Under the pieces are notes generated by a model that saw nothing but the letters and a program-made list of their open reading frames with translations, was not told where the DNA came from and searched no databases. The translations under genes and the position numbers were made by a program. Of a stretch of DNA of 64,000 nt, positions 18,637 through 46,224 are shown in pieces. The stretch is from NCBI GenBank assembly GCA_028711705.1, contig JAQTRS010000002.1, positions 137,617 through 201,616 on the forward strand, written 5' to 3'. How positions within the stretch are numbered: position 1 is the stretch's first letter; each line of letters begins with the position of its first letter. The DNA is from Candidatus Moraniibacteriota bacterium. Its GTDB lineage: Bacteria; Patescibacteriota; Minisyncoccia; Moranbacterales; UBA1568.

Positions 18637-18723
18637 ATGGCTCAGCAAGTTTCTACACAACATAAAATCCCGCCTTTTGAGGGGCGAGACTCTATGTATC
18701 CGATACGCGCTGTCGTATGGAAA

Positions 18724-21700
18724 TTACTTCTTGCCTTCTCGGAAACCGGTTCCGGCTGGAATCAATCGTCCGATGATAACGTTTTCCTTGAGGCCTCGCA
18801 AGCGATCCTCCTTGCCGGCGACGGCGGCATTGATCAGAACGCGGGCCGTCTCCATGAACGATGCGGCAGAAAGGAAGCTCTCGGTCGAAAGCGCCACTTT
18901 AGTGATACCCAGGATAAGTGCCATTCCGGTCGCCTCCTGCCCCTTGGTTGCCCTCGCCTCTTCGTTCGACTCCTCGAACTGGACGCGCTCCACGACATCG
19001 CCCGGCAGAAGCATCGTGCTTCCCGGTTCCGATACCTGGATACGAGAGAGCATCTGACGGATAATCACTTCGATGTGCTTGTCATTGATACCTTCACCCT
19101 GAGATGCATAGATTTCCTGGATCTCGCGGATGACGTAACGGTGCAGTTCTTCGCGGCCCATAACGGTGTAGAGCTTGCGCAAGTCGATGTGTCCTTCGGA
19201 AAGAACCGATCCTTGACCAATCAGATCACCCTCTTGAACCTTGAGCGTCGTACCGGCAGCGATCTGATATTCCTTCACGCTTTCGTCCTGTGCCTGCACT
19301 TTAACGACCACCACTTTGCTGCTTTCCTTGACGATGGATACCACACGTCCGGCCTCTTCGGCGATCAGCGCCTCGCCTTTGGGCTGACGAGCCTCGAAAA
19401 TTTCCTCGACACGAGGGAGGCCCTGCGTAATGTCCGATCCGGCGACACCGCCGATGTGGAAGGTACGCATCGTGAGCTGCGTTCCCGGTTCTCCGATAGC
19501 TTGAGCCGCCACGACGCCGACAGCCTGGCCGAGCTGCACCAAAGCGCTTCGTCCGAGATCCAAACCGTAACATTTCTGACAAACGCCCCTCATGCTCTTG
19601 CAGGTCACGACGCTTCGAATCTTCACCTTGTCGATGTTCAAATCCTCGATCGCCTGTCCCTGCGTCTTGGAGATAAGATCCCCGGCTTTGGCCACGACAT
19701 GTCCGGAAGCATCCGACACGTCCACCAATGCGACACGGCCCTCGACGCGTGTTGCGAAGCTCTGCCCGATGATATCGGAATCGGCCCTGTACAGGTAGGC
19801 GCCTTCGGTATCGCCACAATCGGTTTCGCGGATGATGATATCTTGTGCTACATCGACGAGACGGCGGGTCAAATAACCGGCGGTCGCAGTACGAAGAGCG
19901 GTATCCGCCATACCCTTACGGGCACCGTGCGTCGAGATGAAATACTCCAACACATTGAATCCTTCCTTGAACGAGCTCTTCACAGGAAGTTCGATCGTCT
20001 CACCTGTCGGACCGGCCATCAAGCCTTTCATACCGGTCATCTGCACGACGACCGATTCACTACCGCGGGCCTTGGAATAGACCATCGAGTACACCGGTCC
20101 TTCCTTATCCAAAGAGGCGCGCACGGCATCCGTAATCTTGTTCTTGGCTTCGTTCCAGATTTCGATCACGCGGTTGCGGCGTTCTTCATTGGTCAAAAGA
20201 CCCATGTTGTACTGACCTTTCACCTCGGCCACCTTGGTTTCAGCAACCGCCATGATGTCCTTCTTTTCTGTCGGCACCTTCAGGTCGTCCATACCCCAAC
20301 TGATTCCGGACTTACTGACGAAACGGAATGCCAAATCCTTCACGCGATCCGCGAAAAGAGCGGCCTCGTCCTGTCCAACCGACATCATGATGGTGATCAT
20401 CAGGTTCTTGAGGTCCTTCTTGATCAATTCCTCATTCACAAAACGCAATGTCTCCGGAAGAATATCATTGACCAACACGCGTCCGGCCGAAGTTTCGATG
20501 ATTTCACCGTTCCACAACAACTTGATGGCGGCGTTAATGGCGATCACTTCCGACTGATAGGCCAAGATAACCTCTTCCATCGAACTGAAGATCTTGCCTT
20601 CGCCCTTCATACCCCTCTTGATGTGCGAGAGGTAATACATACCGAGCACCATATCCAAAGACGGGGTCACGATCGGATCTCCCGAAGCCGGCTTGAGGAG
20701 ATTCTTCGCGGAAAGCATGATTTCGGCGCTTTCCTTGCGAGCATGATCAGTCAGTGGCACATGCACCGCCATCTGATCACCATCAAAGTCCGCATTGAAA
20801 GCGGTACACACCATAGGGTGCAGACGGATAGCCTTACCTTCGATCAATACCGGCTGGAAGGCCTGAATGGACAGACGATGAAGGGTCGGTGCGCGGTTGA
20901 GCAAAACATAGTGATGCTCGATGATCTGGTCGAGGATTTCATAGGCCTCTTCCGCTTCAGCATCCACCATCCTGCCGGCGGTACGCACATTATGAGCATA
21001 CTCGCGATCGATGAGCTTGTTGATGATGAACGGCTTGAAAAGTTCCAGCGCCATTTTCTTGGGCAGACCGCACTGATGCAGTTTGAGCTGCGGACCCACG
21101 ACGATAACGGATCGTCCCGAGTAATCCACACGCTTTCCCAAAAGGTTCTGACGGAAACGGCCCTGCTTTCCCTTGAGCGCGTCGGCCAGCGACCGAAGCG
21201 CACGGCGCTGTCCGGTCGAAGCGGCTGTCGATGCCTGTCCGCGACGGGCGCTGTTATCGAAGAGCGCATCCACCGCTTCTTGAAGCATGCGCTTTTCATT
21301 GCGCGTAATCACCTCCGGAGCACCGATACTGTTGAGTTTCTTCAGGCGGTTGTTTCGGTTGATGATGCGGCGGTACAGATCGTTCAGATCGGAGGTTGCA
21401 AACCTACCGCCGTCCAGCGCCACCATCGGACGAAGATCCGGCGGGATAACGGGGATGATGGTCGGAAGCATCCACTCCAATTTCAGATTCGCCTTCTTGA
21501 ATCCCTGGAACAATTTCAAACGCTGCAAGGCCTTCTTTCGATCAGGAGATTCATCCTTGTCGAGATTCTCTTTCAAGATTTCGGTGGTTGCATCGATATC
21601 GATCTTGCTCAGTACCTTGCGCACGGCCTCGGCACCGATACCGGCGTGAAACACCTGTCCGAAACGGGTCGAAAGATTGAAATACTCCACTTCGGAGAGG

Positions 21701-22320
21701 ATCTGGAACGGCTGGAGGTTCTTGATATCCTCCTTGGCGGAACGGTACTGATCCTTCAGGTCATCCATGCCGGCATCGACCGCCTTCTCGTCGTCGCCGT
21801 GATTGTTCTTGACTTCCTTCTGTTTGGACCTGTACTCGCGCTCGAGCTGTTCGACGGCGCGCTCCTTTTCTACCTCATCCACCTCGGTGATGATGTAGGC
21901 GGAAAAATAGATGACCTTCTCCAATTCCTGCGGGGAGATTCCCAAAGCGAGACCGATCTTGGATGGCACGCCACGGAGGAACCAGATATGCGAAACCGGC
22001 GCGGCGAGCTTGATGTGCCCCATGCGCTCACGGCGAACGATGGAACGGGTCACCTCGACTCCGCACTTATCGCACACGATGCCTTTGTAACGGATGCGCT
22101 TGTATTTTCCGCAGTAACACTCCCAGTCCTTGGCCGGACCGAAGATTTTTTCGCAAAACAGACCGTCGAGCTCATAGCGCTGAGTTCGATAGTTGATGGT
22201 CTCGGGCTTGGTTATTTCACCATGCGACCACTCCATCATCTGGTCAGGACTCGCGAGGCTGAGGCGGACGCTCTCGAAGTCGCTTACTTTCGTAATGTTG
22301 TTTTCCATGATCTTGTTCAT
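18724..22320 (-). CDS. rpoC: DNA-directed RNA polymerase subunit beta-prime
   Basis: ORF track; 1198 aa; zinc-binding CxxC, NADFDGD catalytic motif. Confidence 0.97.
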
Positions 22321-22373
22321 AAGTTTAGGTTATTGAAGCGCCGGGCGTAGCAAGTACGCCCCGCGTTATATAA

Positions 22374-30596: not shown

Positions 30597-31301
30597 TTAC
30601 TGATCTTGTGAGATTGCCCGAAGAAACTGCTCTGCCAGGGCTAAGTCTTGGGGATTGCCGACCGGCAGCCACCTTCGCGTCACTTTGACTTGTACCGGAT
30701 GCTTCTGACCCATAACAACCAGTGTCTGAGGCAGGCCGTATTCCGTCTCGGATATTTTGACGGGAGGATAGGTGAAAAAATCCGTGCTCAGGACATAGGC
30801 CCCCGTATTGACCAAGCCTTCACCTAATTCGTGCGGACGCTCCACCACACCCGCCAAATGATGCCGCTCATCGACCGTCACCAGACCGAAGGCGGACGCA
30901 TCCTGCGTATGGTACCCGAGCAGTGCAAGCGGATAGTGCATGATCTTTTCGATATCGTCCGGATGATAGAGGTCGTCGCCCATCGTCACCAAAAACCGCT
31001 CGCGGACGATGTCTTTCACGAGATAGATGGCGCCCGCCGTCCCGTTAAGCTCGGTCTGCTCGACATAGGTTATCTTTTTTCCGTTCCACTTTGTGCCGAA
31101 ATAGTCCTGGATAATTTCCTTCTTGTATCCGACAACGAGAATGACTTCCTCAACACCTTCCGGGAGCAGGCGTATCTTATGCGCCAGCAAAGGCAGGCCG
31201 AGCACACAGATCATCGGCTTCGGAGTATTGTTCGTCAATTCGCCCATACGGGTACCGCGCCCGGCGGCCAAAATTACGCACTGCATAGGCTTAGACAACA
31301 A
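30597..31301 (-). CDS. sugar-phosphate nucleotidyltransferase (NTP_transferase fold)
   Basis: ORF track; N-terminal LAAGRGTRMGELTNNTPKPM signature. Confidence 0.75.
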   Translation of the reverse strand: MLSKPMQCVILAAGRGTRMGELTNNTPKPMICVLGLPLLAHKIRLLPEGVEEVILVVGYKKEIIQDYFGTKWNGKKITYVEQTELNGTAGAIYLVKDIVRERFLVTMGDDLYHPDDIEKIMHYPLALLGYHTQDASAFGLVTVDERHHLAGVVERPHELGEGLVNTGAYVLSTDFFTYPPVKISETEYGLPQTLVVMGQKHPVQVKVTRRWLPVGNPQDLALAEQFLRAISQDQ

Positions 31302-34300
31302 TATTCATCAGTCGATTCGGCACGAAAATCACTTTCCTGATAGTTTTTCCCTGGATATGGAGCGCCACTTTCTCATCCTGCAGTGCAAGCGTTTCAACAT
31401 CCTTCTGCTGTGCGCCGGAAGCGACGGCTATTTTGGCGCGGAGCTTCCCATTGACCTGCACGACGATATCGACCGTTTCATCTTGCAAAAGCTTCGGATC
31501 GAATTTCGGCCACACGCCTTCGGTGATAGATCCGGCGTGACCGAGCCTCTCCCACAGCTCTTCGGCGATATGCGGTGCAAACGGAGATAAGAGGAGCAGG
31601 AAGGTTTCAAAATCATCCTGCGAGATCTTTGCCTGCCTATCCATCTCATTGACGAGTATCATCAGGCTGCTGACAGCCGTATTGAAACGGAACTCCTCGA
31701 TATCCTGCGTGACTTTCTGGATAGTCTTGTGCAACAGCGTGCGCAAAGCATTGTTTTCTGTTCCTTGTTTTCTGTTGATTGCTGACTGTTGACTAACTTT
31801 CTCTCCCATTCTCCACACCTTTTCCAAGAAGCGTCGCGGTCCGACAAGATTGTCCGTCTTCCAGGCTTTGGCATCCTCAAGCGGCCCCATGAACATCTCA
31901 TAAAGCCTTAGAGAATCCGCACCGAATTGCCCGACGACATCATCCGGATTGACGACATTCCCCAAAGACTTGCTCATCTTGCGGCCGTCTTCCGCCAACA
32001 CCATGCCCTGGTGCCTGAGCTTCATGAACGGCTCATCGAAATCAATCAGCCCATACTTTCGGAGCGCTTTGGCAAAGAACCTCGCATAGAGAAGATGCAG
32101 CACCGTATGTTCCGCTCCGCCCATATACACATCCACCGGGAGCCACTTCGCGAGTTTTTCCGGATCTGCAAATGCTTCCGTATTCTTCGGATCAACGAAA
32201 CGCAGATAGTACCAGCTCGAACACACGAACGTATCCATCGTATCGGATTCACGCCTCGCTTTTTCACCGCACTTCGGACACAATACATCATGAAAGCTTT
32301 CCGAACGTGTGAGCGGAGACTCCCCTGTCGGGCGGAAATCCACATCCATCGGTAAACTAACCGGAAGATCCTGCTCCGGCACCGGCTGCTCGCCGCAGGT
32401 ATCGCAGTAGATGATCGGGATCGGCGCACCCCAATAGCGCTGCCGCGATACGAGCCAATCACGCAATCGATAATTCACTTTTTTCTCACCGAGTTTTTTC
32501 TCCTCCAACCATTGTGTTATTTTTTCTCGCGCTGCTTGTGAAGCCAATCCCGAAAATGCTCCGGAATCAGCCAGCACGCCGTCTTCAGCAAAGATCTTCC
32601 CTTGGATGAATTTGTCGAAAAGGTATCGATGCAACGGATCAGCAACCTTGGCGAATGCATCTTCTCTGGTAATCCATTCCACCGTGAACTTATTATGCTC
32701 GTCCGCTTCCAAACGCTGCTCCGCTTTTTCCTTATCCGCCAAACGAAAGTGCAGCCCTGTGGCCTCGATATTCCTGTAGACATTCTTGGAAGCCGCGAAA
32801 TAGTGATGATGGATTTTTTCGGATACCGCCACGAGCTTCACATGCTTGTAGCCAGTCTCCTCTTCGATCTCCCGCACGGCCGCCTGAATCACGTCCTCCT
32901 CTTCTTCCAGTCCCCCGCCGATAAACAGATTGCCGCCGAGTTTCTCCCCCCAATTGATGGAGAGGAATTTCCCGGTTTTCGCATCCTCGACCACCGCCAC
33001 GATACTGCGACGGAATTCCTCATTCTCACGCACCGTCCCCGTGACCGGTTCGATCGATATACGTATCGGAAGATCGTATTTCTTCGCGAAGGCAAAATCG
33101 CGCTCATCATGCGCTGGTACCGCCATCACCGCTCCGGTTCCATAATTACCGAGCACATAGTCCGCCACAAATACCGGGACCGCCTCACCGGTGAATGGAT
33201 TGATAGCCTCGATACCCTCAAGCTTCACGCCCGTCTTATCCTTGGCAAGTTCCGTACGCTCAAGCTCCGTTTTCTTCTTCGTCGCTTCAAGATATTTTTC
33301 GACTTCAGCCTTGTTGCTGATTCCCTGTTGACTGTTATTTGTTAATTGTTGACTGACCAAAGGATGTTCCGGCGCCACCACGACATAGGTGCAACCGAAA
33401 ATAGTATCGACACGCGTCGTGAACACTTCGATATCCTCCTGCCCTTGCTTATCTTCCGTTTTTTGTTGACTGTTAATTGTTGACCCGCCCGCAACGTTTC
33501 GCGTAGCGATTCGGGCAGGCTGTTGACTGATATGAAATCGCACCATCGCCCCCTCGCTCCTTCCGATCCAGTGCTGCTGCGCCTTCTTGGTTGACTCGGG
33601 CCAATCGATTTTTTTAAGACCGGAAATCAGTCCGGAAACATCGCGTCCCTCGAATTGCTGATCCTCGATGAAATCCGTGATCTTGAAAAACCATTGCTTC
33701 AGATCCTTCTGCACCACTTCCGTCTTGCAGCGCTCGCACACGCCATCCACCACCTGCTCATTGGCCAGCACGGTCTGGCACGACGGACACCAATTCACGC
33801 TCGCCTGTTTACGATAGGCCAAACCGTTCTTATACAGAAACAAAAACAGCCACTGCGTCCATTTGTAATATTCGGGGCTCGACGTATCGATTTCGCGCGA
33901 CCAGTCATAGGAAATCCCCAAGCTCTTGATCTGACGGGTGAAGTTGGCGATATTTTCGTGGGTTTTTTGATCGGGGTGCACGCCGGTCTTGATGGCGAAG
34001 TTTTCCGCAGGCAGTCCGAAAGCGTCCCACCCGATCGGATGCAAGACTTCAAAACCCTGCAGGCGCTTGAAGCGCGAATAGATGTCCGTGGCCGTATAAT
34101 TCTCCACATGACCCACGTGCAAACCGTCCCCCGAAGGATACGGGAACATGTCCAACACATAACATTTTTCCTTGCCGGACTGATCCGATGCCTGAAAGTC
34201 GCCCTGCTTCGCCCACCGGTCTTGCCATTTCTTCTCGATAGTTTTAGCGCTGTACTGGCCTGCCATAAGGAAAGTATTAAGAGTATTACCCTTATCATAG

Positions 34301-34326
34301 CCTCTTTGGGACTTTTTTTCAAGCAA
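31291..34326 (-). CDS. leuS: leucine--tRNA ligase with an inserted Nudix-hydrolase-box segment
   Basis: ORF track; class-I HIGH (PYPSGDGLHVGH), KMSKS, AVPAHDERDFAFAKKYDLP. 1011 aa versus a typical about 800-880. Perfect Nudix box GGGLEEEEDVIQAAVREIEEETGY inserted after the AVPAHDERD motif. Confidence 0.93.
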   Translation of the reverse strand: MLEKKSQRGYDKGNTLNTFLMAGQYSAKTIEKKWQDRWAKQGDFQASDQSGKEKCYVLDMFPYPSGDGLHVGHVENYTATDIYSRFKRLQGFEVLHPIGWDAFGLPAENFAIKTGVHPDQKTHENIANFTRQIKSLGISYDWSREIDTSSPEYYKWTQWLFLFLYKNGLAYRKQASVNWCPSCQTVLANEQVVDGVCERCKTEVVQKDLKQWFFKITDFIEDQQFEGRDVSGLISGLKKIDWPESTKKAQQHWIGRSEGAMVRFHISQQPARIATRNVAGGSTINSQQKTEDKQGQEDIEVFTTRVDTIFGCTYVVVAPEHPLVSQQLTNNSQQGISNKAEVEKYLEATKKKTELERTELAKDKTGVKLEGIEAINPFTGEAVPVFVADYVLGNYGTGAVMAVPAHDERDFAFAKKYDLPIRISIEPVTGTVRENEEFRRSIVAVVEDAKTGKFLSINWGEKLGGNLFIGGGLEEEEDVIQAAVREIEEETGYKHVKLVAVSEKIHHHYFAASKNVYRNIEATGLHFRLADKEKAEQRLEADEHNKFTVEWITREDAFAKVADPLHRYLFDKFIQGKIFAEDGVLADSGAFSGLASQAAREKITQWLEEKKLGEKKVNYRLRDWLVSRQRYWGAPIPIIYCDTCGEQPVPEQDLPVSLPMDVDFRPTGESPLTRSESFHDVLCPKCGEKARRESDTMDTFVCSSWYYLRFVDPKNTEAFADPEKLAKWLPVDVYMGGAEHTVLHLLYARFFAKALRKYGLIDFDEPFMKLRHQGMVLAEDGRKMSKSLGNVVNPDDVVGQFGADSLRLYEMFMGPLEDAKAWKTDNLVGPRRFLEKVWRMGEKVSQQSAINRKQGTENNALRTLLHKTIQKVTQDIEEFRFNTAVSSLMILVNEMDRQAKISQDDFETFLLLLSPFAPHIAEELWERLGHAGSITEGVWPKFDPKLLQDETVDIVVQVNGKLRAKIAVASGAQQKDVETLALQDEKVALHIQGKTIRKVIFVPNRLMNIVV

Positions 34327-45187: not shown

Positions 45188-45259
45188 GGTCCCATCGTCT
45201 AACGGTTAGGACAGCAGGTTTTCATCCTGTAAACCGGGGTTCGACTCCCCGTGGGATCA
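45188..45259 (+). tRNA. tRNA-Glu (anticodon UUC)
   Basis: Hand-folded cloverleaf: acceptor GGTCCCA/TGGGATC, D-stem GTCT/GGAC, anticodon stem GCAGG/CCTGT with loop TTTTCAT, T-stem CGGGG/CCCCG, T-loop TTCGACT. CCA not encoded. Confidence 0.85.
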
Positions 45260-45265
45260 CATAGT

Positions 45266-45696: not shown

Positions 45697-46224
45697 TTAC
45701 ATCATAAATATGAATCCTTTCCCTTTATTAAGAAGATGCTCCAGGATGTCTCTCGTTATCGAAGACACCGGATGACAACTCCCCTGTTCATCACCGAACA
45801 TTTTCTCGATGATTATATTGCTCGCCTGCAAAAGAGATATCCAACAAAAGGCCTCTATTTCTTGATTAGCGATCATCTTTTTCCCGTCCTTGCACACGAC
45901 CTTGCACATATGAACTTCGACTGATTTCTTGGAAAAAGAGGCCTCTCCTCGAAAAATTTTCGGAGAAAAGGTTCCTTTTATCTCAAAAACGCCATTCTTC
46001 AGCTCTTTGTCAAGCTCCCTATGCAATGTATCTGTCAAGGATTCATTGCCATTGACTTTTCCACCCGGAAGGGTCCAACAGGAAGTCTTGGTTTCTTGAT
46101 CGTATTTAAGCACCAATAACAATCTATTATCCTGAGACTCGATACATATCGCATGGACCGCTATCTCATCCGCCATGCAATCTCTTTTCATACAACAAAT
46201 AGCACTCATATCAAAATCCCCCAC
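45697..46224 (-). CDS. Nudix hydrolase
   Basis: ORF track; Nudix box LPGGKVNGNESLTDTLHRELDKEL; start uncertain (MADEIAVH alternative at 46176); lower-GC stretch. Confidence 0.6.
   Translation of the reverse strand: MGDFDMSAICCMKRDCMADEIAVHAICIESQDNRLLLVLKYDQETKTSCWTLPGGKVNGNESLTDTLHRELDKELKNGVFEIKGTFSPKIFRGEASFSKKSVEVHMCKVVCKDGKKMIANQEIEAFCWISLLQASNIIIEKMFGDEQGSCHPVSSITRDILEHLLNKGKGFIFMM

Follow-up and report, generated by a model that had tools for sequence, protein, structure and literature searches.

What is a hydrolase fold doing inside the editing domain of a leucyl-tRNA synthetase (LeuRS)? The question is raised by leuS of a Candidatus Moraniibacteriota bacterium, a gene lying in a 64,000-nucleotide stretch of contig JAQTRS010000002.1 (assembly GCA_028711705.1, positions 137,617 to 201,616 of the forward strand), hereafter the window. 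Aminoacyl-tRNA synthetases (aaRS) are among the most conserved enzymes, and extra catalytic domains are rare in bacterial ones, yet the product of this gene carries a Nudix domain within its connective peptide 1 (CP1) editing domain. We regard it as nearly certain that this domain is nested, folded, and selectively maintained.

The assignment of the open reading frame (ORF) to LeuRS, made at first from the sequence alone, is upheld by profile and pairwise comparison. The product scores 1051 bits against the NCBIfam model TIGR00396 (leuS_bact), well above its equivalog cutoff of 548.4, and matches Thermus thermophilus (Tth) LeuRS, 1h3n, with an E value of 1.8e-227 in phmmer. An upstream TTG extends the ORF to 31291..34326 on the reverse strand, and the sequence-only reading had accordingly given a product of 1011 aa. 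That start is unsupported. Because the deposited protein P0002, from a Candidatus Moranbacteria metagenome-assembled genome (MAG), is 991 aa long and 100% identical to the leuS product, and because the alignment to Tth LeuRS starts at residue 4, we place the start at the ATG at 34266, which yields 991 aa. At NCBI, P0002 and several Nudix-bearing orthologues are named "class I tRNA ligase family protein" and not leucine--tRNA ligase; the Nudix insert has possibly disturbed the naming rule there. Across a set of relatives made up of the 120 closest LeuRS from a 5.8-billion-protein collection, synthetic and editing motifs are kept throughout: T283, T284, R285, D287, and T288 are at least 90% conserved, and H386, D387, R389, and D390 are invariant.

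About 150 extra residues had been noted between a conserved 19-residue motif and a 20-residue motif where the catalytic core resumes, and both motifs and the perfect Nudix box between them were located (Table 1). The placement of the insert needed revision. Positions 32880-33060, given for it originally, cover only its N-terminal third, and the site is not that of the leucine-specific domain. Instead, alignment to Tth LeuRS puts the insert within CP1, in a loop at the surface of this editing domain, after which about 40 CP1 residues (EDGVLADSGAFSGL...KKVN) precede YRLRDW. The leucine-specific domain, which most bacterial LeuRS have and some do not, is itself absent: query residues 759->763 align with Tth 580->637, so that Tth 581-636 have no counterpart and MVLAEDGR-KMSKS is left. 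Where present, this domain lies in the second half of the Rossmann fold, just before KMSKS, joined by a beta-ribbon; it is not essential, and the Mycoplasma mobile LeuRS has a GKDG tetrapeptide linker in its stead (PMC3643597). The window enzyme can therefore still be regarded as a bacterial LeuRS without it.

The insert is recognizable as Nudix well beyond the 23-residue box. The Pfam NUDIX profile (PF00293) matches 133 of its residues with an E value of 6.1e-13 and 49.4 bits, compared with a gathering score of 21.1, and the box has the form G451-x5-E457-x7-R465-E466-I467-x-E469-E470-x-G472-Y473, a full match to Gx5Ex7REUxEExGU. In an AlphaFold2 model of the full protein built from 120 sequences (mean predicted local distance difference test score, pLDDT, 89.5; predicted template modeling score, pTM, 0.82), blocks of the insert score 84-97 and follow the expected order of strands and helices. 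Modeled alone, the insert reaches a pLDDT of 94.1, with the box-bearing helix at insert residues 55-67. Foldseek returns a probability of 1.0 for many Nudix structures, the best being 2azw (template modeling, TM, scores of 0.72/0.78); next come ADP-ribose pyrophosphatase, NudI, RppH, Ndx1, and NUDT2, an Ap4A hydrolase. The whole model compares with LeuRS structures at a TM score of 0.85 when normalized by the target and 0.75 when normalized by the query, a gap consistent with an extra domain of about 150 aa that has no counterpart. Together, the models describe a predicted autonomous alpha/beta/alpha Nudix sandwich nested in LeuRS. The sequence-only reading had named two outcomes that would count against it, a profile match confined to the box and a structure lacking the Nudix fold; neither was found, since the profile match spans the whole domain and the predicted fold is that of Nudix.

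Within the insert Pfam recognizes NUDIX alone, and nowhere in the window protein does it report a Hint/intein or an endonuclease domain. An intein or homing element is therefore rejected, also because the insert persists as a folded domain in the model. Neither GC content nor skew shows an anomaly across the insert, and recent foreign DNA was rejected on this ground.

Table 1. Positions of features of the leuS gene and of a second Nudix ORF, numbered from the first nucleotide of the window.
Feature	Position	Strand	Residues or content	Basis
leuS coding sequence	31291..34266	(-)	991 aa; ATG at 34266; stop 31291-31293	
HIGH signature	34108..34119	(-)	HVGH	Motif search
CP1 editing domain, N-terminal part	33049..33561	(-)	aa ~236-406	PF13603, E 2.4e-55; Tth alignment
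Low-complexity Q/N/S-rich segment at CP1 entry	33427..33531	(-)	aa 246-280; ISQQPARIATRNVAGGSTINSQQKTEDKQGQEDIE	No Tth counterpart; predicted disordered
T-rich motif in CP1	33403-33420	(-)	TTRVDT	
Conserved 19-residue motif of CP1	33067-33123	(-)	Contains AVPAHDERD	Motif search
AVPAHDERD in CP1	33097-33123	(-)		
Nested insert	32596..33048	(-)	aa 407-557 (~150 aa)	Replaces 12-residue loop 364-375 of Tth LeuRS
Pfam NUDIX match	32614..33012	(-)	Profile positions 3-132 of 134	PF00293
Nudix box	32848..32916	(-)	GGLEEEEDVIQAAVREIEEETGY; G451, E457, R465, E466, E469, E470, G472	
CP1 editing domain, C-terminal part, leading back to catalytic core	32470..32595	(-)	aa 558-599; IFAEDGVLADSGAFSGL...KKVN	Aligns with Tth 376-417
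20-residue motif where catalytic core resumes	32413-32472	(-)	YRLRDW	Motif search
KMSKS loop with short linker in place of leucine-specific domain	31966..32004	(-)	MVLAEDGRKMSKS	Tth alignment
Free-standing Nudix ORF	45697-46224	(-)		PF00293, E 6e-10

Conservation of the domain indicates that selection has acted to keep it. Among inserts 21-69% identical to that of the window, E62, E65, E66, and G68 (insert numbering) are invariant, and R61, G47, G48, and E53 are conserved in at least 90%. A scan of the Genome Taxonomy Database (GTDB), taking one genome per species and two exact peptide patterns that recover only the window's own insert type (type A), gives a lower bound of at least 76 species. 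The domain lies inside leuS in all 76, with 62 complete ORFs. The species come from Saccharibacteria, Paceibacteria, Uhrbacteria, Giovannonibacteria, and further groups, and the closed genome CP025011.1 is among them. REx2EE is present in 76 of these 76 LeuRS-embedded homologues and the strict box in 75; the remaining box positions vary freely, and nearly every box sequence differs at noncatalytic positions. Within type A, Nudix identity correlates with LeuRS-core identity (r = 0.81; means of 59% and 62%). Because the Nudix domain diverges about as slowly as the core and the two identities are correlated, type A has been passed down vertically with the enzyme, under purifying selection about as strong as that on the core. 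The same correlation rules out a recent transfer as the origin of the window's insert.

Type A is one of at least five insert types (A-E) at this site, which are about 25% identical to each other, and across types the correlation between core and insert identity is only r = 0.21. The nearest cores to that of the window carry other types: P0003 (85% core identity) has a type B insert 32% identical to the window's, and P0004 (83%) a type D insert, 23% identical. Sliding identity to P0003 and P0004 falls from 0.9-1.0 to 0.1-0.5 precisely between residues ~401 and ~560. The low correlation, the divergence among types, and these mosaic boundaries rule out a single vertical history for all inserts. 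On a distance-based neighbor-joining tree of the core, Nudix presence and absence are interleaved, and in P0025, P0029, and P0036, a nucleotidyltransferase-like domain of about 155 aa (PF10706/PF14907) occupies exactly the same CP1 loop with no Nudix there. Since close relatives have other Nudix types, a nucleotidyltransferase, or nothing at this site, cassette replacement and loss are indicated. The simplest reading of these comparisons would be an old type-A insertion, followed by repeated precise replacement by other cassettes and repeated loss, with replacement plausibly proceeding by recombination through the highly conserved flanks. Additional domains are found elsewhere in related enzymes: GIY-YIG nested inside CP1 in P0055, a serine/alpha-beta hydrolase before CP1 in P0072, NUDIX separating the catalytic from the anticodon-binding domain in P0038, and an insert of about 130 aa without domain assignment at reference positions 620-700 in P0009, P0017, P0051, and P0052.

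To gauge how common the arrangement is, we turned to the relatives set. In 71 of its 120 LeuRS, the segment at precisely the window's site exceeds 140 residues (68 Nudix and 3 nucleotidyltransferase-like); in the others it measures 16-121, for the most part 16-50. A word-indexed search with the insert alone gave a single match, P0001, and the family became visible through full-length searching and an exhaustive HMMER scan. That scan, run with the insert alone over 1.84 billion cluster representatives, found only 287 relatives at E <= 1e-3. Among the best 150 of these 287 representatives of the Nudix clade, 96 are LeuRS-linked, with 89 Nudix copies at the window's site, 17 before CP1, and 4 after the YRLRDW/zinc region; 11 representatives have two copies and 2 have three. 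Three NUDIX matches each are found by Pfam in P0128 (1140 aa) and P0125 (941 aa), the first two ahead of CP1 and the third at the window's site. The architecture is widespread in Patescibacteria, and Nudix in LeuRS is a lineage-wide, cassette-like trait and not a singular event. Some LeuRS-Nudix genomes (L015, L024, and L009/L018/L022) are labeled Woesearchaeota, Nanoarchaeia, Gammaproteobacteria, Bdellovibrionales, or Bacillota; these are likely mislabeled or mis-binned Patescibacteria MAGs.

The same Nudix clade occurs outside LeuRS. P0001 and about a dozen others are free-standing proteins of 275-350 aa with the layout CP1, Nudix, CP1 C terminus, and many have lost T-rich or Asp editing residues while keeping the Nudix box, as in P0124 (ERLET, AHSQAD) and P0001 (ETNRLDC). 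These proteins derive from the CP1 of LeuRS and are probably not deacylases. The P0001 gene, on a JGI contig, lies between a gene for a 164-aa Nudix protein and a Nudix-less leuS of 804 aa, which both Nudix genes precede. P0124 (L005:5001-5864) is a genuine gene, located in a closed genome of 875 kb (CP066684.1), with no synthetase within 5 kb downstream and SerRS and a class Ib synthetase upstream; P0131 (L004:29-1069) is a further free-standing CP1-Nudix protein. P0127 (L084:711-1175) is a free Nudix protein 48% identical to the insert, and its gene is located just after tsaD and 5 bp upstream of a gene for a 760-aa ValRS-like class I synthetase (L084:1180-3462). Another free Nudix protein, P0161 (box RKIKEE), is encoded two genes upstream of a ProRS carrying its own nested Nudix. 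In that ProRS, P0272 (L087:2762-4693), and in P0273-P0276, a B/C-like Nudix lies between the anticodon-binding and C-terminal domains, with KE replacing RE in its box (KEILEE). Such nesting is seen in only 5 of the 120 nearest ProRS relatives, the named ones being Nanoarchaeota/Woesearchaeota, which hints that the cassette may have moved between bacteria of the candidate phyla radiation (CPR) and DPANN archaea. Finally, in P0245 (519 aa), a PNPase-like protein (RNase_PH and RNase_PH_C), a NUDIX of the clade lies between the two RNase PH halves.

Given its conserved catalytic residues, the window's Nudix domain is probably catalytically active. Our best explanation for its presence, offered tentatively, is that the protein joins LeuRS to a pyrophosphohydrolase acting on ApnN by-products. 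It would be a bifunctional enzyme, with the second activity divalent-cation dependent and belonging to the small MutT/ApnA-hydrolase/RppH-like group. It is established that aaRS make Ap3-5N from the aminoacyl-adenylate (PMC7705103). The Nudix domain would cleave such adenylylated polyphosphates (Ap4A and related ApnN), which are by-products of aminoacyl-adenylate chemistry, where they arise, limiting the build-up of alarmones or Np4-cap precursors and giving back AMP/ATP to an organism dependent on nucleotide salvage. It would be an accessory domain that leucylation can do without, given its loss or exchange in many close orthologues.

Several observations point in the direction of ApnN. The Ap4A hydrolases 1f3y (lupin, 4.2e-10) and 3i7u (Aquifex, 2.4e-8) are among the top four PDB matches of the insert profile, with MutT, NudB, and DIPP following within about three orders of magnitude, and of the 50 structural matches listed, none exceeds the Ap6A hydrolase Ndx1 in sequence identity (24-25%). 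Outside the box, type A conserves a His/Lys/Arg-rich set (R15, H82-H84, K90, R94, and K122 in insert numbering) that would suit a polyphosphate chain. A tyrosine some 16-18 residues downstream of the box, reportedly a marker of ApnA hydrolases, gives a mixed picture: a Tyr at +16 (HHHY) is at least 90% conserved in type A, and other insert types have F, G, or other residues. The clade is tied by fusion or operon to three adenylate-forming synthetases (LeuRS, ProRS, and ValRS-like), and because its bias to aaRS genes, operon neighbors included, is strong, a functional link to these enzymes is suggested.

Other results weigh against ApnN hydrolysis, and even granting activity we consider an ApnN-type substrate possible but rather doubtful. 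No NCBIfam equivalog is reached (NudB 33.2 bits against a cutoff of 103; RppH, NF001938, 24.7 against 116), and among the NCBIfam matches listed, none of which reaches its cutoff, there is no ApnA-hydrolase model; we therefore dropped substrate assignment by equivalog, all matches being far below cutoff. The top structural match, 2azw, is uncharacterized, and ADP-ribose pyrophosphatase, NudI, and RppH score about like the ApnA hydrolases; NTPases, too, are found among the fold matches. A member of the clade is nested in the PNPase-like P0245, which makes no adenylate, and the two or three Nudix copies of some LeuRS are not needed for simple clean-up. No Nudix gene adjoins leuS in the Nudix-less orthologues of L001-L003, which removes compensation by a neighboring Nudix gene as an explanation for those three. 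In E. coli, LeuRS is not known to rank with the strongest producers of Ap4A.

The main rival, which we judge unlikely, is that the domain is an RNA-end hydrolase on an RNA-binding scaffold, acting on tRNA or RNA termini presented by CP1. It might remove 5' pyrophosphate or Np4/NAD-type caps as RppH does or, alternatively, free the 3' end of tRNA from a (pyro)phosphate or nucleotide adduct that blocks it. E. coli RppH is among the best fold matches of the insert (TM 0.60-0.65) and RppH models are among its top NCBIfam matches, although they score far under the family cutoffs. Every fusion host (LeuRS, ProRS, and PNPase-like) binds RNA. In the free-standing CP1-Nudix proteins P0124 and P0001, editing residues are gone but the scaffold of CP1 and an intact box remain; this would also fit such a role, as would the nucleotidyltransferase-like domain at the identical CP1 site in P0025/P0029/P0036. 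Presentation by CP1 is harder to reconcile with Nudix copies at LeuRS sites outside it, such as the one in P0038.

A broader proposal, to which we likewise give only a small chance, is that CPR bacteria and some DPANN-like archaea use aaRS as a chassis for exchangeable enzymatic cassettes (several Nudix types, nucleotidyltransferase, GIY-YIG, and serine hydrolase), with CP1-Nudix as an unrecognized functional module. Recombination would swap the cassettes at fixed loops, and the targets of the CP1-Nudix unit would be tRNA ends or nucleotide signals that derive from synthetases. The unit could serve in tRNA repair, as an anti-toxin or anti-phage countermeasure, or in alarmone control. Roles of this kind would account for the diversification, the multi-copy insertions, and the frequent turnover.

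Less probable still is an exchangeable accessory cassette whose function has no relation to leucylation, LeuRS being merely a tolerant, always-expressed carrier. Such a cassette could be a selfish or near-neutral domain insertion or a module of a diversifying conflict or defense repertoire. Much of the history set out above is what it would predict: core and insert identities that are nearly uncorrelated overall, at least five divergent insert types at one site, sharp mosaic boundaries in P0003 and P0004, presence and absence interleaved on the core tree, relatives with a nucleotidyltransferase at the same CP1 loop or, at CP1 sites close by, GIY-YIG or serine-hydrolase domains, and copies at several sites and in several host proteins. 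Neutrality, however, would not predict a type A that matches the essential core in its degree of conservation and keeps its catalytic residues in 76 of 76 species. The lack of a Hint/intein or endonuclease domain and of a compositional anomaly also speaks against such a cassette, and the aaRS bias of the clade speaks for a functional link. A cassette of this kind thus explains the turnover but neither the conservation of type A nor the aaRS bias.

We hold it very improbable that the domain is a noncatalytic module (a pseudo-enzyme) with a nucleotide-sensing, regulatory, or structural part in modulating CP1 movement or tRNA binding. The aminoacylation and editing states differ by a rotation of CP1 (PMC3643597), which a bulky insert could tune; degenerate boxes do occur in related copies, namely in P0161, in the ProRS insert, and in one LeuRS type (LKEIHEE). 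The window protein and all 76 type-A homologues, however, keep the full catalytic set, which is the signature of a working hydrolase. An assembly or annotation artefact (a chimeric contig or frame error) would come to mind for DNA from a MAG but is practically excluded, because the same in-frame architecture recurs in dozens of independent assemblies, closed CP025011.1 included, and here the reading frame is unbroken and LeuRS sequence picks up exactly after the insert.

Within the window, leuS is followed in gene order by NTP_transferase, CofD-like, HAD, and glmS, and upstream of it lie DUF4349 and the ATP synthase operon. Because the leuS-NTP_transferase(-glmS) order is common to Nudix-less orthologues, the locus, judged within 64 kb of genome, appears to be an ordinary housekeeping one. 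The Q/N/S-rich segment at the CP1 entry has a pLDDT below 50 at aa 255-271 of the AlphaFold2 model; in most relatives it measures 4-31 residues, with up to 161 in P0072, where the hydrolase domain lies. The CP1-entry site holds Nudix or a serine hydrolase in other LeuRS.

The free-standing Nudix ORF, to which the sequence-only reading had also drawn attention, does exist, but the implied link to the insert does not hold: the two lack significant similarity (BLASTP E 8.3), so a source or paralogue of the insert it is not. Its box, RELDKE, is without one catalytic Glu and the following Gly, and its product may be inactive or atypical. Elsewhere in the window, two long ORFs, 18637-22350 (+) and 18724-22320 (-), of 1237 and 1198 aa, overlap almost fully on opposite strands, and leuS, too, is overlapped by antisense ORFs, of 150-250 aa; no more than one gene is expected per overlapping pair. 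A tRNA-Glu (UUC) at 45188-45260 (+) is the only RNA gene detected within the 64-kb window.

Full-text searches, with subscription-only literature lying outside them, found no paper on Nudix nested in LeuRS or in any aaRS. The proteins themselves are already public, in databases with automatic Pfam labels. What is new here is the exchange of cassettes at one CP1 loop, the multi-copy insertions, the free-standing CP1-Nudix proteins, and the spread of the clade to ProRS, to a ValRS neighborhood, and to a PNPase-like host. The cassette-like turnover and the free-standing proteins suggest an unrecognized functional module and not a one-off fusion. If the Nudix domain is active, tRNA charging would be physically coupled to nucleotide, alarmone, or RNA-cap turnover in organisms of minimal metabolism, which would offer a natural system in which to ask what the Ap4A-type by-products of synthetases do. 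Under the same condition, the protein would show that a CP1 surface loop accepts the insertion and swapping of whole domains, which is useful for engineering.

Set beside known systems, each half of the protein has familiar counterparts. Small Nudix hydrolases such as 2AZW (Enterococcus faecalis), 1F3Y, 3I7U, 1VC8 (Ndx1, T. thermophilus), and 4S2X (RppH) share the box, fold, and size of the insert; they are only 15-25% identical to it, and the window's Nudix differs in being nested and in belonging to a clade largely restricted to aaRS hosts. The NCBIfam family NF040702 (isoleucine--tRNA ligase, N-acetyltransferase domain-containing) likewise combines a class Ia synthetase with an unrelated catalytic domain, which we take to be appended and not nested. 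Both the synthetase and the added fold are others, however, and the window protein scores 88.9 bits against its cutoff of 1999. AlaX and YbaK/ProX are free-standing trans-editing factors, and the free-standing CP1-Nudix proteins (P0001, P0124, and P0131) resemble them as autonomous copies of an aaRS editing fold, but differ in coming from the CP1 of LeuRS, in carrying Nudix, and in often being without editing residues.

The synthetase half agrees with bacterial LeuRS (T. thermophilus 1H3N/2BTE; E. coli 4AQ7/4ARC) in its class Ia core, HIGH and KMSKS signatures, T-rich and AHD(x)RD motifs of CP1, and anticodon-binding and C-terminal domains, and departs from them in the CP1-nested Nudix, the disordered CP1-entry segment, and the missing leucine-specific domain. 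With the minimal LeuRS of Mycoplasma mobile (3ZIU; PMC3643597), it shares a short linker before KMSKS, GKDG there and EDGR in the window. The Mycoplasma enzyme is also without CP1, whereas the window enzyme keeps an intact-looking CP1, enlarged by a second enzyme domain.

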